Source: a virus (Duplodnaviria > Caudoviricetes). From it: a DNA stretch of 64,000 bases. The stretch spans positions 22,413-86,412 of IMG/VR virus record IMGVR_UViG_3300037067_006130. One strand, written 5' to 3'. Each line of letters begins with the position of its first letter. Position 1 is the first letter of the stretch. A program made the position numbers and the translations under genes. The notes beneath the pieces are model-generated. The model searched no databases. It saw nothing but the letters and a program-made list of their open reading frames with translations, and had not been told where the DNA came from. This document shows, piece after piece, positions 3,001 through 32,309 of this stretch.

Positions 3001-6000
3001 AATTATATCCACCTGATAAGTCAAGAACTTTTGATAAGAAATTATACTGGCATCCCTGGGCACTTCAAGAGGCAAGAATAATCAGTTTAGATGGTGTTAA
3101 TCTAAAGGCCATTGCAACCAATCATGCAACAACCTATAGCTATCTAAATGCGATTAAACCTGATATCAAGAAATTTACCGCCAAGAATGGTAAGCAGTAT
3201 ACTACATCATTTCCTATTCCAAGATATGATGATAAAGGAAAGCAACAAGGTTCTATTAAGCTAGATGGTATTCCTGAAGATGTATTCAATGTTTATAAAG
3301 AACATCATGGGAATATTACCAATTTATGTTTCGATAATATGACCGATCCTAAGATTGGAAGGATGGGATATAATGTTTGGACATCTAACCTATTTGAGTT
3401 TGCTCTTATCAATGATAGCTCATTATCATCTAAGAACTACAAAACTGCTCAACTTTTAGATAAAGCGGTTACCCAACGAATTAAAGAGCTTTCAATCTTC
3501 TTTAACCGTCCAGTATTTAAAATGTTTGCAGTAGAGTGTGATCGATTTAATAAATCAAACGAATTCTACTCTACATCAGAGGTTCAAAAACTTGCATTTA
3601 CTGAGGTTGAAAGAATGTTTAATTCAAAAGAACCTGCAGATGTTGTTGCTCTAGATAAGTTAATGAAGTATTCCAGCGACCTAAACGTGATTAAAGGTGT
3701 TCAGAAGTTAACCGAGCAGACACCAAAAAGTTACGAAGAATACGCTGCTTCATTGGATTCGATAAAGAGATTAATGACCAATGGACTTTATTTCTATGAT
3801 ACTCGTGCATTTTTAAACGATACCCAAAGAGAGTTAACCCCTCTTCTCGAGAATGCCATTAAGTCATTAATGGCTGCAGAAAATCTTGCATTCAAAAAGA
3901 GCATCGAAACATCGAAGATTGCTCAGTTTGTAGTCCATGAGATTAAGAACAAGATTGCTTTAGAGAAGGGTTCAGAACGTGGAGTATGGCTTGGAACCGA
4001 AACGGTTAAGAAAATTATGAATAACCTTCAGGCATTCATCTCCCTTAACGCATTGGTTAAAGATGTAGAACCGGGTACTATCGCGGATAAACTGATTAAC
4101 GATTTCCCTATGTACAAAACAAAATTTATGAATAACAAATTCATGGATTTTGTGCAGGTTGAGGATAGAGCAGATATTACCGACATTAAGAACATAAAAC
4201 TTCGCGAGGAAAAGACGATACAAGTTCCAACTATCTTTAGAACCATTAACCTAACACCAGAACAGCTTAAAGAAATTCATGATGATTTTGATGCTCTTCC
4301 TGCAGAGTTAAAGGATGCTTTGTATACCTACATGATATATGAGCATGGTATTAAGAATGCAATAACTACAGGAACTTACTATCAGTTCATGAGTGACAAG
4401 TTTCTTAACGAAAAAGCAAAAGTTATTGAATCCGAGATGCAACGTTGGGAACAGAATGATTTTGGCGAGTTAACTGCAGGTCAGATATCCCAAGTACTTG
4501 TTGATAACATAAAGGAATTCCTTAAGGGTAATCGTGGTAAGGTTCGATTCAAATATGAAACAAAACACAAGTACGATGTTCAGGATCTCAAGAATAATTT
4601 CTCTGAGTTTGTAGGTTCGTTTAGCCTTGCTGACCATCAGAAGTATGCTAACATAAAGACTGAAGCACAATTCATCAAGTTTATCGAGGCAAAAGGAGTT
4701 ACTTACGAAGACTTTAAGACTGCTCTAATCTATCATATCACCGAGAATGGAATTAAGGTTAATCCTAAAACCATGATTTCGGACTACTTTTCTAACCCTG
4801 AGAACTTTGTCAAGGTCGAAAAGATGGATCATAAGATGGCCTCAGCCGATAATATTACAGGTAAAGATACGACCACGTTAGTCGAATCAGAGAAAGGTAA
4901 TAGAACAGCAAGTACTCGCTCTTTCCCGCTAGGTTCGTTTAAGAATGAGAATTTAGCCTACGCTGAGAAGGATATCCCAGGTCGATTAATCCGTCTTGAA
5001 GGAGGTAAAGAATTATACGTTGTAGAAAAAGTAGAACAGCTTACCAAAGATGTTCTCGCTGATCCTACGTTCCCTGAACGTTGGAGCAAGAAAGAACTTT
5101 GGACACCAGAATACTTCAAGAAAGTGTTAGGTGGACCAACCGTTCACGAAGGTTCTTGGCAGACCACATGGAGAAAAATAGATAGAAGTGAGTTAAAGAT
5201 GGCTCATGCTGGTGGAAATAAAGTTGCCAATGAACTACCTATTGACTATCATGGTTCTATTGTATTCGCTTCCATTGGTACTGGTAAGTCAGTATTCGTT
5301 TCTCAAAAACAAGGTGTACTCGATGCGGATGATTTGCTTAGAGAAATTCTTGACGATCATGGAATCGAGTATGATGTTAATAACTTCGGACTTAAAGGAT
5401 ATGAGAACATCGATACTATTTGGGATGATTTAAGACAGTTATTAACCGATAAACTTAATGAAGGACATACAATTTTTGGTAGCAATTTCTTTTTACTTCA
5501 TGAGGATCTTGGAAAGGATTTAGTGAAGTATGCTCTTCTCGAAAAAGACACGAATCTATTACACGACAGAACAACACAAAGAGCAAAAGCAGAAGGAAGA
5601 AATGAAATACAGATTGATTACCTAAATCGTAGAGTAAGACAGGAAGTAGATGCTTTCAAAGACCTTGGTAAGAATAGAAAAGAACTAGGTGGTAAATTTG
5701 TATCAGATCATTTTAACCCTGAAACACAATCGAAATTAGGTAATATAAGTGAGAAAGTAGTATTCGGTAAACTTGAGGTAATTAATACTAATCAGGGTAG
5801 AACGAATGAGTTATCCCTAAAAGATTTATCAGAACGTATATTAACGATGAATCCTGAGATTGAGAAGTTAGTTAATAAACTCATTTTATCCTATCCAAAC
5901 AGTAAGGTTATCCTTTACCTAGATAAGATTGATCCTCTTGGAAGTGCCGCATTGGGTACCGACAATAATATTGAGATGTACAAGGATTCCGTTGGCGAAG

Positions 6001-28924: not shown

Positions 28925-29374
28925 TTATAAGTTAATTTCTTTAGGTTTTCCTACTCCAAGTGATTCGTTCTCAGGAATAGGTTGTGCGTTTGGAAATTTT
29001 CTTCTATCCACAATCATTCCTGAAGGAAGTATGCCAGCGTAACCCTCTTTTGATATCTCTGCTAGTTCTAAAATAGTATCGATATAGATTTTTTGTATTC
29101 GATCTATCTCAGCAGCAATCATAGCACCTGCAACTATTAACTTCTGCAGATCTGATTTACCTTCTATTTTAGCACAAACATTTTCATCCCAGTGTTCCGG
29201 CCAGGGTAATCCGCTAACAGTACCAATACATTTTGTAATTCCTATGCGTAATGGGAGTATCTTAAATGGTCCTGATGGAGTTGAATTCTCAGCAACATCT
29301 CGTATAACCGAATGACCATGTTTCTCAATCTGTTCTGCCCTTTCAATGGCAATCAGTTCAATTCCTGTTTTCAT
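28925..29374 (-). CDS. Hypothetical phage protein (149 aa)
   Basis: MKTGIELIAIER..Q...WP..W...L..AGA.IAAEIDR pattern common in phages. Confidence 0.65.
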   Translation of the reverse strand: MKTGIELIAIERAEQIEKHGHSVIRDVAENSTPSGPFKILPLRIGITKCIGTVSGLPWPEHWDENVCAKIEGKSDLQKLIVAGAMIAAEIDRIQKIYIDTILELAEISKEGYAGILPSGMIVDRRKFPNAQPIPENESLGVGKPKEINL

Positions 29375-29377
29375 CGT

Positions 29378-31918
29378 TTAGATTTTAAAGTTAGGATCAT
29401 ACTTATGATCGGATATCATCTTTTGTTTAATCTTGGAATACTGTCCGTTAAGAACCGTTCCTGATACATCATAACCCCATTCTGATAACTTCTTTAGCTG
29501 CCAGTACTGGGCAGGTTCATTAGAGATTAGTTCGTTACACATACCCTTAGTGTATTCCACATCGGGTTCCCATAGACCAAGCTTCTTTAGATAGTCTAGC
29601 TGAGCAGGTGTAGCTAAGTCCTGAGTCCACTCACCACCGTAAATCTTTAGTTCTGGTAGTTTAAGTAGGTTGATACGACCATCCTGTTTAACCTTAGTGT
29701 CAATCTTCGCTTCTCTACGCTGCTTCTCGGCAAAGAGAAGTTTCTCTTTATTCTCTTTGGTAACAAAGGTTTTTTCTTTTGCGGTCTTGCCCTTATCGAG
29801 AGTCCATGTATTGATTAGGTTGTGCTTGCCGGAATTGTCTACAAAGTCAAGAATCTTACAGTCATTCAAACCGTACTTCGTTCTAAACTCAGGACTTTTT
29901 AAACGGCATCCTCTACCAATCGACTGCATGTAGAAAGTTAGCGATTGGGTAGGTCTAGCCATTAGCACAGCACCTACATCTGCGTAATCCCATCCTTCAA
30001 TGAGAATCTGTACGTTCAAAAGCACCTTCGTTTCTTTGCCCCTAAATCGGCTATTTACGCCTTTACGGTCAGGACAAACGTTTTCATCCGCAACGAGTAT
30101 TTCGCATGAAATTCCGCTTTGTATGAATGCTTCTCGAAGGTGTATCGCATGAAGGACATCAACACAAAAACCGATAGCCTGTCTATCACTACAATATTTC
30201 TGATAGGATTCAACGATAAGCTTATTTCTTTCCTTAGTATCAACTAGGTTAGATAACTCATTAATCTTGAAGTCGCCAGCCTGTCGATGTACCTTAGAAA
30301 GATCTGTTTCTGTCTTAATACGAATACCATCAAGCTCACAAAGAAATCCATCCTCTATCGCTTTGGCGATATTATACTCAAAGGTGATATCGTCAAATAA
30401 ATCCGCAAGAGATAGTCCATCCAACCGATATGGAGTAGCAGTCCAACCAACGGTTAGCTGTGGTTTAAAATGCTGTACCGCTTTCACCCATGTACGAGCA
30501 AGGTATCGATGACAATTATGTACTAATATATTTTCTACGAAATAGTTGTTATTATCTTCTACTTCCAGATTGTAGACAAAATTGTCTGAACCACTAAGTT
30601 TGGATTTAGATCTACTTCTTCGTTTGTAAATCTTAGAACAGTCCAACCCAACGAATTCAAAACGTTCGTTTTCCGTTTGTCTAAGAACTTCCAACGTTTT
30701 AACTTGTGAGTTTTTCCATCTATTTCTATCGCAAGTTTCGAGGGAGGATCGGCTAGATCTACTTTGTAATGATATGGCAAACAAGTTTCTGAAGACGTTT
30801 GATTTTTCGTTAGGATCACATATTCCATTGGAAGTTCTGTCAGGTTGTGAATCATTAATTGTTGCTTCGTTAGTTGACCATTTCCTCCGCGAGAAAGGAA
30901 TGTTTTTCCTTGCATACTTCGAATCATCTTTGTCTTGGCTTCCGGATTGAACATCGGATTGTTTTTCTTCATTCTTTCCGAACAATCCCTTTTGTTTACT
31001 AGTATCATTGATTTTCTTGCAATTCCCTTGAAGTACTCCTTTTTGCATTTGATAGAACAGCAACCAGAACCTCTTATAACTGAAGCCATGAATGTTTTCC
31101 GTTTTCTTCCTTCTTTGGCCCAAGACTCCCAACCAAATATTTTTCCACAGTTGTTGCAAACCAAAGTTGGATTTAATCTTAATTTTGTTTTTCTTGCTTT
31201 TTCGCAAATAGAAGAACAAGTTTCTCTGTGTGTCTGAGAATGAAACTTTATTCCACAATTTTTGCATATACCTGAACGTAATCGAGTCATATAGATAGCA
31301 CATTGATGTATGGCAAGTATATGACAAGTATATTTCTTTTGCAAGGCAATAACCTATTTTGTTTATATAAATAGGATGGTTCTTTGTGCAAGAAAATACT
31401 CCAAAATCGTATAGATACTTTGGTTTTTCTTTAACAATCACATTTATTACTTTTTTTAGTTCAATGCGATTTTCTTGATGATTAAAAGAATGAACATAAT
31501 CACCAATTTCTATGATTTCTATTGGTTGTTTATCAACCAAGGTTCCTGCGGGAAAACATTCGTCAATCTGTACCAAGGCGAAATGGTTTGGGCTAATCCT
31601 ATCCAGTCGGTTAATCAACGTTTGAGGAGAGGCAACCACGACTTTCTTATCAATCTCAAATCGTGATCCCTTGATTACCCCAACGTTCATAAACCCATGG
31701 AACTTCTCCATGTCTTTCACTGCCTGCTCAATCAACTCTTCGCTATGAGCTAAGAACAGGCTATTCTTAAACTTGGTAGATACGTTGACCGCCGCAATTC
31801 GCTTGCCCGTTCCGGTAGCTTGTATAACTAACTGTCGTTTAAGCCCTTTCTCCTTAAAAGCGGTGTGTATCGCCTTAAAGCAGGCAACCTGATATGGTCG
31901 CCAATTTACGTCAATCAT
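29378..31918 (-). CDS. Superfamily II (DExH) helicase, intein-containing
   Basis: WRPYQ, ATGTGK, DE|CH split by intein, TATPYR, ILIEGWD, QSIGRGCR. Confidence 0.92.
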   Translation of the reverse strand: MIDVNWRPYQVACFKAIHTAFKEKGLKRQLVIQATGTGKRIAAVNVSTKFKNSLFLAHSEELIEQAVKDMEKFHGFMNVGVIKGSRFEIDKKVVVASPQTLINRLDRISPNHFALVQIDECFPAGTLVDKQPIEIIEIGDYVHSFNHQENRIELKKVINVIVKEKPKYLYDFGVFSCTKNHPIYINKIGYCLAKEIYLSYTCHTSMCYLYDSITFRYMQKLWNKVSFSDTQRNLFFYLRKSKKNKIKIKSNFGLQQLWKNIWLGVLGQRRKKTENIHGFSYKRFWLLFYQMQKGVLQGNCKKINDTSKQKGLFGKNEEKQSDVQSGSQDKDDSKYARKNIPFSRRKWSTNEATINDSQPDRTSNGICDPNEKSNVFRNLFAISLQSRSSRSSLETCDRNRWKNSQVKTLEVLRQTENERFEFVGLDCSKIYKRRSRSKSKLSGSDNFVYNLEVEDNNNYFVENILVHNCHRYLARTWVKAVQHFKPQLTVGWTATPYRLDGLSLADLFDDITFEYNIAKAIEDGFLCELDGIRIKTETDLSKVHRQAGDFKINELSNLVDTKERNKLIVESYQKYCSDRQAIGFCVDVLHAIHLREAFIQSGISCEILVADENVCPDRKGVNSRFRGKETKVLLNVQILIEGWDYADVGAVLMARPTQSLTFYMQSIGRGCRLKSPEFRTKYGLNDCKILDFVDNSGKHNLINTWTLDKGKTAKEKTFVTKENKEKLLFAEKQRREAKIDTKVKQDGRINLLKLPELKIYGGEWTQDLATPAQLDYLKKLGLWEPDVEYTKGMCNELISNEPAQYWQLKKLSEWGYDVSGTVLNGQYSKIKQKMISDHKYDPNFKI
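30515..31558 (-). mobile_element. Intein (348 aa) in the helicase Walker B motif
   Basis: Block A CFPAGTLV, block B CTKNHP, block F VYNLEV..NYFV, terminal HN followed by Cys(+1). Confidence 0.93.
30559..31344 (-). CDS. Zn-finger + DUF559/Vsr-like endonuclease overprinted within the intein (likely start 31290)
   Basis: CKNC..C..C and CNNC..C..C motifs; YKVDLA...LAIEIDGKTH...D..K...L..LGWTVLRFTN; +1 frame relative to the intein. Confidence 0.88.
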   Translation of the reverse strand: MQKKYTCHILAIHQCAIYMTRLRSGICKNCGIKFHSQTHRETCSSICEKARKTKLRLNPTLVCNNCGKIFGWESWAKEGRKRKTFMASVIRGSGCCSIKCKKEYFKGIARKSMILVNKRDCSERMKKNNPMFNPEAKTKMIRSMQGKTFLSRGGNGQLTKQQLMIHNLTELPMEYVILTKNQTSSETCLPYHYKVDLADPPSKLAIEIDGKTHKLKRWKFLDKRKTNVLNSLGWTVLRFTNEEVDLNPNLVVQTILSTIWK

Positions 31919-32309
31919 GTTTACTTGCTAGTTTAAAGGATGGTATGAAGTACTCGTGTTTGCTCTCTGGCCATCCTTGGATTGTTTTATGCCTGTCTTG
32001 GAGAAGGGGAATTAACTCCTTCCATTTCACATGGGAAATAAAGCACCGCCAAATATTCTCATCCTTTACCCATCTTGGATGGTTCGGATGAATATCTGTA
32101 CGAACGTTAAACTTGTATTTTAGCTTCTCTTTCCCATTATGATCTCCAATACGAACAGAGCACATTCGGCTATCCTTAAATCGGATATATACGCTTCCGG
32201 TGTTAGCGACATGCCATATATACGATTCGATACCGACCTCATCAAGAGCAGCGACTATCTTATTCGCAATACTCTCATGAGTTTCTTTGATCTGTTTATG
32301 CTTTTTCAT
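31911..32309 (-). CDS. Hypothetical protein (132 aa)
   Basis: SVYIRF...VRIGDH...YKFN motif. Confidence 0.6.
   Translation of the reverse strand: MKKHKQIKETHESIANKIVAALDEVGIESYIWHVANTGSVYIRFKDSRMCSVRIGDHNGKEKLKYKFNVRTDIHPNHPRWVKDENIWRCFISHVKWKELIPLLQDRHKTIQGWPESKHEYFIPSFKLASKHD

Follow-up and report, generated by a model that had tools for sequence, protein, structure and literature searches.

We examined a 64,000-nucleotide (nt) stretch of viral DNA, referred to here as the window, which is part of an 86-kb IMG/VR virus record (IMGVR_UViG_3300037067_006130). The window contains a helicase gene that is interrupted by an intein, and the DNA of that intein also encodes a nuclease in the +1 frame of the same strand. 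The data presented here suggested that this is a mobile intein composed of two overlapping same-strand genes, one of which would be read through in frame 0 and spliced out of the helicase, and the other of which would be started independently in the +1 frame and yield a nuclease that drives homing. We put the probability of this reading at roughly 0.85. The features of the locus were as follows.

29378..31918, minus strand: gene for a superfamily 2 (SF2) helicase precursor (ResIII and Helicase_C), 846 amino acids in a single unbroken frame
31559..31918, minus strand: N-extein, 120 amino acids, whose C-terminal end (...VQIDE) is the first half of Walker B (motif II)
30515..31558, minus strand: class-1 intein, 348 amino acids, with Cys1, block B TxxH, and a terminal His-Asn followed by Cys+1
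31289..31558, minus strand: HINT N-lobe, intein residues ~1-90, with a predicted local distance difference test score (pLDDT) of 83-98
30662..31288, minus strand: helicase-frame read-through linker, intein residues ~91-299, stop-free, with a pLDDT of 37-61 and a ratio of nonsynonymous to synonymous substitution rates (dN/dS) of ~1
30515..30661, minus strand: HINT C-lobe, intein residues ~300-348, with blocks F and G
29378..30514, minus strand: C-extein, with the N-terminal sequence CHRYLART
30559..31290, minus strand: putative homing endonuclease open reading frame (ORF) in the +1 frame, 243 amino acids from the ATG at 31290, with its stop codon at 30559-30561
31045..31266, minus strand: two CxxC...CxxxC zinc-ribbon-like motifs, the presumed DNA-binding part of the nuclease
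30562..30840, minus strand: DUF559/Vsr-like nuclease domain, nuclease residues ~151-243
30562..30660, minus strand: dual-coding stretch, in which the C-terminal end of the nuclease (LGW.VLRF.N.EV) lies over the first HINT C-lobe strands

The intein boundaries at 30515 and 31558, which a previous sequence-only reading of this DNA had proposed for a 348-amino-acid intein with splicing blocks, proved to be exact. Specifically, the first intein residue (Cys121 of the helicase ORF) was encoded by TGT at 31558-31556, immediately 3' of GAC GAA (D-E), the intein ended in His-Asn (AAT at 30517-30515), and Cys+1 was encoded by TGT at 30514-30512. The intein began with CFPAGTLVD... after ...VQIDE, and the helicase resumed at ...ILVHN|CHRYLART. 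This placed the insertion point at DE|CH in Walker B; the spliced product would read DE-CH, compared to DEAH in vacant alleles. Among 58 aligned inteins, the Cys1 nucleophile of block A was invariant, and in block B, which reads CTKNH in the window, T58 was nearly invariant and H61 was invariant. The VHN|C junction at 30520-30512 corresponded to (H/S)N followed by Cys in 62 of 65 relatives and by Ser in the remaining three. Together, the Cys nucleophile, block B, the His-Asn|Cys junction, and the predicted HINT fold identified a class-1 intein.

A Pfam search of the helicase frame detected ResIII, Helicase_C, and a C-terminal stretch of Intein_splicing only. The search detected no LAGLIDADG or HNH domain in this frame, which is the domain that a canonical bifunctional intein would carry there, and this agreed with the sequence-only reading of the intein middle. 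When the intein frame was modeled from the 58-sequence alignment, the model was confident only at residues 1-90 and 300-348 (block-mean pLDDT, 76-98). These confident parts matched BIL, DnaX, DnaB, and RecA mini-inteins with a Foldseek probability of 1.00, and the ~210 residues between them were predicted to be disordered, with a pLDDT of 37-53 over residues ~100-300. The need of the phage for an intact Walker B motif in its SF2 helicase pointed to splicing of this intein.

In the +1 frame, the ORF matched DUF559 (PF04480) in Pfam with an E value of 5.9e-14 and a score of 52.3 bits (cut-off, 20.6), and a profile search with the nuclease returned PDB entries 3hrl (9e-13) and 3r3p (1e-3). The nuclease model, which was built from a 62-sequence alignment, had a mean pLDDT of 89.2. 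Its top structural matches in Foldseek were the catalytic domain of I-Bth0305I (3r3p), a DUF559 protein (3hrl), and Escherichia coli Vsr (1vsr); the TM-scores by target for 3r3p and 3hrl were 0.62-0.69, with E values of only 7e-3 to 7e-2. From its N to its C terminus, the protein comprised zinc ribbons, a helical region in which the motifs RMKxNNPM and RGGNG occur, and the Vsr/EDxHD nuclease domain. Cys45, Cys48, Cys78, and Cys82 were nearly invariant across the family, and D178, E189, D191, H195, D204, and K207 were invariant in 62 sequences; the acidic and His residues among these six are candidate catalytic residues. The profile matches and the confident model indicated that the +1 product has a DUF559/Vsr-like (EDxHD-type) endonuclease fold, in line with the Zn-finger/DUF559-type endonuclease that had been proposed from the letters of the sequence. 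An upstream TTG at 31344 would extend the nuclease to 261 amino acids (30559..31344). The predicted cleavage target of the nuclease is the vacant ...ATTGA(T/C)GA(G/A)|GCNCAT... Walker B coding site.

As a chance test of the two open frames, the 243-amino-acid nuclease was re-encoded 5000 times with synonymous codons drawn from the codon usage of the exteins. The helicase frame over the nuclease contained 0 stops compared to 24.8 expected stops, and none of the 5000 resamples was stop-free; the third frame over the nuclease contained 27 stops. Across 65 loci, the mean number of expected helicase-frame stops was 18.6, and the observed number was 0 in every locus. The +1 phase was not inherently easier to keep open: more stops were expected in the helicase frame than in the third one. 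The absence of stops where ~25 were expected indicated that both frames have been kept open by selection, and the sequence-only claim that chance is a poor explanation for the two frames was borne out.

Next to stop avoidance, the substitution patterns of the two frames differed sharply. We used nuclease-guided codon alignments of 73 distinct sequences; simple dN/dS estimates are biased on overlapping frames, a caveat to be set against our reading, and the contrast between frames is informative here and the absolute values are not. Across the family, the nuclease frame had a dN/dS of 0.14-0.26, and the same nucleotides read in the helicase frame had a dN/dS of 1.0-1.36. Nucleotide differences were concentrated at position 3 of the nuclease codons, with counts of 131, 157, and 401 for codon positions 1, 2, and 3, respectively, in the 80-90% identity band. 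When the window was compared to three relatives, namely L089 (P0006), L091 (P0012), and L011, dN/dS was 0.18-0.29 in the nuclease frame, 0.99-1.23 in the helicase frame of the overlap, and 0.17-0.46 in the helicase frame of the HINT N-lobe, which is not overlapped. Purifying selection is acting on the amino acids of the nuclease, and the intein-frame linker is held stop-free only. The sequence-only reading had suggested a per-frame dN/dS comparison as a check, and the pattern that would have told against it, namely, constraint on the intein frame rather than on the nuclease frame, was not seen. The pairing of purifying selection on the nuclease frame with relaxed constraint on the overlapped host frame places the element with the non-canonical inteins that carry an out-of-frame nuclease.

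The same earlier reading had described the in-frame middle of the intein as junk. This description was appropriate for most of the linker, which was unconstrained and kept stop-free only, but not for the last ~30 codons, which are dual-coding with the HINT C-lobe. Over the last ~33 nuclease codons, the nuclease-frame synonymous rate dropped from ~1.1 to 0.38 (about 3-fold), which indicated constraint in both frames.

The arrangement was found in a large family. When GenBank phages were searched by tblastn with the nuclease as the query, 40 records were returned, and all of the matches were located under an annotated helicase or hypothetical coding sequence (CDS). We examined four of these records (Corynebacterium phi673, Pseudomonas MR14, Vibrio CP-T1, and Vibrio 159E43-1b); all four had the nuclease in the +1 frame of an unbroken helicase CDS, and the outer helicase CDS was the sole annotation at the nuclease site. 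A profile scan of IMG/VR produced 443 tblastn-confirmed nuclease matches, 80 of which were kept. The viral set of 86 loci consisted of IMG/VR contigs, the four phage records, and the window, and the nuclease was nested in a 2-6.6 kb ORF at 84 of them, always at +1. In representative bacterial genomes and metagenome-assembled genomes (MAGs), 62 of 80 loci were nested at +1, including loci in the isolates Longilinea arvoryzae KOME-1 and Azospirillum canadense DS2. The non-nested bacterial loci comprised 15 ordinary short DUF559 proteins, which matched the C-terminal ~65 residues only, and 3 full-length free-standing relatives. The recorded phage hosts were Vibrio, Pseudomonas, and Corynebacterium, and the labels of the MAGs and isolate genomes that carry the element included Chloroflexota, Verrucomicrobiota, Planctomycetota, and others. 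A blastn search of GenBank phages with the window helicase gene gave zero matches, and a scan of IMG/VR for close relatives of the C-extein gave a single distant locus, which was left unused.

The intein ends were uniform across the family (Cys1 ... (H/S)N | C or S), and the nuclease ORF lay between the splicing blocks but out of phase with the host ORF, which ran on uninterrupted. The insertion point was at the Walker B/motif II codons, namely, DE|CH in ResIII-type helicases, SNF2 ATPases, and DnaX-like clamp loaders; in another SNF2 group, the insertion was at DEAH|C(S)-KN. In the case of the clamp loaders, the intein and its +1 nuclease were present in Walker B of genes with DNA_pol3_delta2, AAA, and gamma3 domains in three viral contigs (L064, L074, and L086) and a Lachnospiraceae genome (L143). 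The presence of the unit in clamp-loader genes indicated that the element has moved between unrelated P-loop ATPase families.

The distribution of the intein among close relatives of the window exteins was sporadic, as would be expected of a mobile element. The closest helicase relative, P0002 (L088:1501-4020), was 86% identical and had a vacant DEAH site, which read ...ATTGATGAG|GCACAT.... Three helicases that were 65-70% identical (P0003, P0004, and P0007; ~503-507 amino acids) were also intein-less with a vacant DEAH, and the P0006 and P0012 helicases contained the overprinted intein. Most helicase homologues at ~50% identity were ~500 amino acids in length, and about an eighth were 760-870 amino acids. 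In contigs from other metagenomes, the intein differed from that of the window at 0-3 positions per 1.1-1.6 kb, compared to 3-13% in the flanking extein pieces, and the contigs broke near the intein ends. A near-identical intein in diverged flanks is suggestive of recent transfer, although contigs assembled from mixed populations are no proof of it. Both the patchy distribution and the near-identical inteins fit the homing that the sequence-only reading had proposed. Across the family, the identity of the non-overlapped HINT parts tracked that of the nuclease (rho, 0.59), which is consistent with HINT and nuclease evolving as a single unit.

Two observations on these relatives concern other inteins and strain variation. 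The P0002 helicase, and also P0005, had instead, in Walker A, a LAGLIDADG intein of the canonical in-frame kind (ATG|C...HN|TGKR), and Pfam matches in P0102 (1139 amino acids) suggested that it contains both the Walker A LAGLIDADG intein and the Walker B overprinted intein. Contigs with the phage region (window 29300-32000) were present in four runs, X2, X3, X5, and X6, which were wastewater, landfill, and aquatic metagenomes and were analyzed as assembled contigs from mixed populations. These contigs had at least two strain variants in the extein parts and a nearly invariant intein part, and no indels were seen within the region.

The model that we favor is as follows. The helicase mRNA would be translated through in frame 0 to produce the N-extein, HINT N-lobe, ~210-residue unstructured linker, HINT C-lobe, and C-extein. 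The HINT halves would then splice the whole insert out to leave a DE-CH Walker B motif, so that the linker would need only freedom from stop codons. Ribosomes that start independently at the internal +1-frame ATG would produce the 243-amino-acid endonuclease, which during co-infection would cut related phage helicase alleles that have DEAH and no intein, and repair from the intein-bearing copy would spread the element.

The sequence-only reading had allowed for either separate translation of the nuclease or a frameshift. We favor separate initiation on the basis of the stops and GAGG motifs near the nuclease start. In about 33 of the 73 distinct relatives (counted by eye from a table), an in-frame stop was located 0-12 nt before the first nuclease ATG, which makes a conserved frameshift entry unlikely and leaves no room for a conserved shift site. 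In addition, GAGG was located 7-9 nt upstream of the nuclease ATG, which is Shine-Dalgarno distance, in Vibrio and Pseudomonas phage loci (L002, L003, and L004) and in an uncultured viral contig (L007); in the Vibrio and Pseudomonas phage loci, this GAGG was within conserved intein codons for D-E-V. A +1 ribosomal frameshift that fuses the N-extein, HINT N-lobe, and nuclease would have room in the window, where the +1 frame is already open 63 nt upstream of the ATG at 31290, but the members had no slippery motif in common, and we regard such a fusion as very improbable. An artefact, in which the nuclease is truly in frame and a canonical intein would be recovered by two indels that offset each other or by two programmed frameshifts, might be suspected because canonical inteins have their nuclease in frame and a lone metagenomic contig could contain errors. 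It is next to negligible as an explanation: the same phase was found in ~146 independent loci, including finished phage genomes and isolate bacterial genomes, the helicase frame was stop-free where 18-25 stops were expected, which would be pointless if the frame was unread, the nuclease frame was closed by stops at both ends within the intein, and independent runs gave the same sequence without indels. The frameshift-fusion, sequencing-artefact, and double-frameshift readings were rejected on the basis of stop positions, phase conservation, and the indel-free independent runs.

It is also conceivable, but in our estimate unlikely, that the nuclease is a silent or dead passenger in this phage and that the intein is kept by vertical descent because precise loss is rare. 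Several results are in keeping with this idea and weigh against our own model. No Shine-Dalgarno-like motif was found before the window ATG at 31290, which is perhaps normal if the host belongs to the Bacteroidota. A scan of 30400-32000 for sigma-70 promoters and terminators returned 3 promoter-like sites compared to 4.3 expected, and the single sigma-70-like match upstream of the nuclease was within chance expectation. The Bacteroidota -7 motif TANNTTTG was not enriched (64 matches compared to 66 expected), and there was no match on the coding strand upstream of the nuclease start. The listed sequencing runs that contained the stretch included none that was recorded as RNA, and expression of the window nuclease is something that we infer from sequence rather than see directly. 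In the contigs of the four runs, none joined across the intein as an intein-less allele of the same phage would. Splicing around a 210-residue disordered insert rests, in turn, on the assumption that the helicase has to work. On the other side, the nuclease ORF is intact and has retained all of the residues that are invariant in 62 family members, its dN/dS relative to the closest carriers was 0.21-0.29, and the intein was almost identical across samples with flanks that were 3-13% different, which fits recent transfer.

The start signals varied among the family members. A Shine-Dalgarno-like motif preceded the first ATG in only 15 of the 73 loci, and this census is noisy because the true start is uncertain in many loci. 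In an SNF2 group (L006, L017, L024, L030, L034-L036, and L042), a conserved AAAGGAT or AAAGGTT abutted the first nuclease-frame ATG; this spacing is too short for a normal Shine-Dalgarno site, and a second ATG is located ~30 nt downstream, ahead of the first zinc ribbon, so either ATG is a possible start. In the most similar IMG/VR helicase (L011:2836-3606), the nuclease frame was open for 771 nt and the first ATG was 324 nt in, and this nuclease may have a non-ATG start or an N-terminal truncation.

The sequence-only reading had taken an in-frame nuclease as the rule for inteins, which holds for canonical inteins but overlooks published non-canonical ones. Out-of-frame intein nucleases were already reported by Gorbalenya in 1998, as cited in later papers. 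Gosselin, Arsenault, and Gogarten (bioRxiv 10.1101/2025.01.02.630785) described LAGLIDADG and VSR-like nucleases on the antisense strand as well as endonuclease-VII-like nucleases in frame 3, with polymerase, minor capsid, terminase, and thymidylate synthase as the hosts, and Phillips, DeSimone, and Gogarten (bioRxiv 10.64898/2026.09.14.751524) described a cyanobacterial dnaX intein that has a +2 LAGLIDADG nuclease, a low dN/dS in the nuclease frame, and a raised dN/dS in the host frame. The window element shares with these inteins an intact HINT domain, a nuclease ORF out of the extein frame between the splicing blocks, an open host frame, and a proposed origin in which a free-standing nuclease gene invaded a mini-intein. 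It differs from them in having a sense-strand +1 DUF559/EDxHD nuclease in Walker B of SF2/SNF2 helicases and clamp loaders and in being present at no fewer than ~146 loci in phages and in genomes of many bacterial phyla. In the full-text literature searched, coverage of which was incomplete, there was no report of a sense-strand +1 DUF559/EDxHD nuclease in Walker B inteins; one paper (PMC7886860) mentions crAss-like phage inteins and says nothing of overprinting. Thus, the overprinted-nuclease intein is of a known kind, and the family, its size, the invariant phase, and the partial true dual coding appear to be new.

Three other systems have parts in common with the window element. I-Bth0305I, the prototype of the EDxHD (Vsr-like) family, comes from a group I intron within recA and contacts DNA through NUMOD/helix-turn-helix motifs (Taylor et al. 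2011, PMC3239194). Like the window nuclease, it has an N-terminal DNA-binding region followed by a C-terminal Vsr-fold nuclease, and it was the best structural match (3r3p; Foldseek probability, 1.00) and also a profile match (E value, 1e-3). The window nuclease, unlike I-Bth0305I, has zinc ribbons, resembles DUF559 (3hrl) more closely at the sequence level, and is encoded by an ORF that overprints an intein. In fractured genes, a free-standing nuclease gene of the Vsr-like or GIY-YIG type lies between the parts of a split intein (Dassa et al. 2009, PMC2677866). These share with the window the association of a Vsr-like nuclease with inteins in phage replication genes, the overlap of the nuclease 3' end with the downstream intein part, and a model of evolution in which inteins are invaded by nuclease genes. 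In a fractured gene, the host frame ends at a stop and starts again downstream of the nuclease gene, and trans-splicing rejoins the protein, whereas the window helicase frame is continuous, which sets the window apart from the fractured, split-intein class. Finally, phage methylases with hidden HNH insertions of the ShiLan type (Arsenault et al. 2025, PMC11855218) also have an out-of-frame homing nuclease in an unbroken host ORF, and both systems raise the question of how the inner ORF is translated. However, the ShiLan-type insertions have no splicing domain and the insert stays in the host protein, whereas the window insert is predicted to be removed by the intein.

Overprinted-nuclease inteins have been treated as rare curiosities, and the one family described here has hundreds of members. 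Because gene callers drop the inner ORF, these nucleases are largely invisible in protein databases. The family offers a new set of nucleases that are predicted to be Walker B specific, and it is a clean natural case of overlapping genes in which selection acts on the amino acids of one frame and, in the other, solely on the avoidance of stops. The HINT domain also appears to tolerate ~210 residues of arbitrary sequence at the point of nuclease insertion. A broader idea, which we hold tentatively and at slightly less than even odds, is that Walker B (DExH)-targeting inteins of P-loop ATPases form a large, old, and unnoticed class in which overprinting has locked HINT and nuclease together, and of which the window intein would be the founding example. 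The start signals of the nuclease would be inside conserved HINT N-lobe codons, the C-terminal helix of the catalytic domain would be co-encoded with HINT C-lobe strands, and neither part could be deleted or decay cleanly without harm to the other. Such a lock-in would explain the invariant +1 phase over ~146 loci, the persistence of the element, and its hops among helicase, SNF2, and clamp-loader genes.

With regard to origin, a single nuclease lineage shows every stage, with L116 as the free-standing form beside an intein-less helicase, most loci as the overprinted form, and L061 as a possible fractured form, and it provides direct comparative material for the model in which splicing came first and the nuclease invaded later. 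An Oscillospiraceae MAG (L116:3001-3642) contained a free-standing, full-length nuclease relative of 213 amino acids, the 3' end of which overlapped the start of an intein-less SF2 helicase gene with a DESH box; this locus resembles the presumed ancestral, free-standing state. The L061 locus (L061:2700-3800; IMG/VR 3300006033_000040) contained a methylase-helicase fusion with the overprinted intein element and was the sole relative with a stop in the helicase frame inside the overlap (3111-3113), which was followed by an ATG restart at 3120. It may be a naturally split (fractured) form of the element, a pseudogene, or a sequencing error. Taken with the constant +1 phase, L116 and L061 fit a single ancient event in which a free-standing nuclease gene entered a mini-intein, after which the composite would have spread among Walker B sites. 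The sequence-only proposal that a free-standing gene invaded a mini-intein is compatible with these loci, but the invasion was not a local or recent event in this phage, because the +1 composite has been inherited as one unit across ~146 loci. A further free-standing nuclease of 225 amino acids was found in Polaromonas glacialis R3-9 (L096:2749-3426), where it was located beside a transposase-like ORF with no intein or helicase frame around it.

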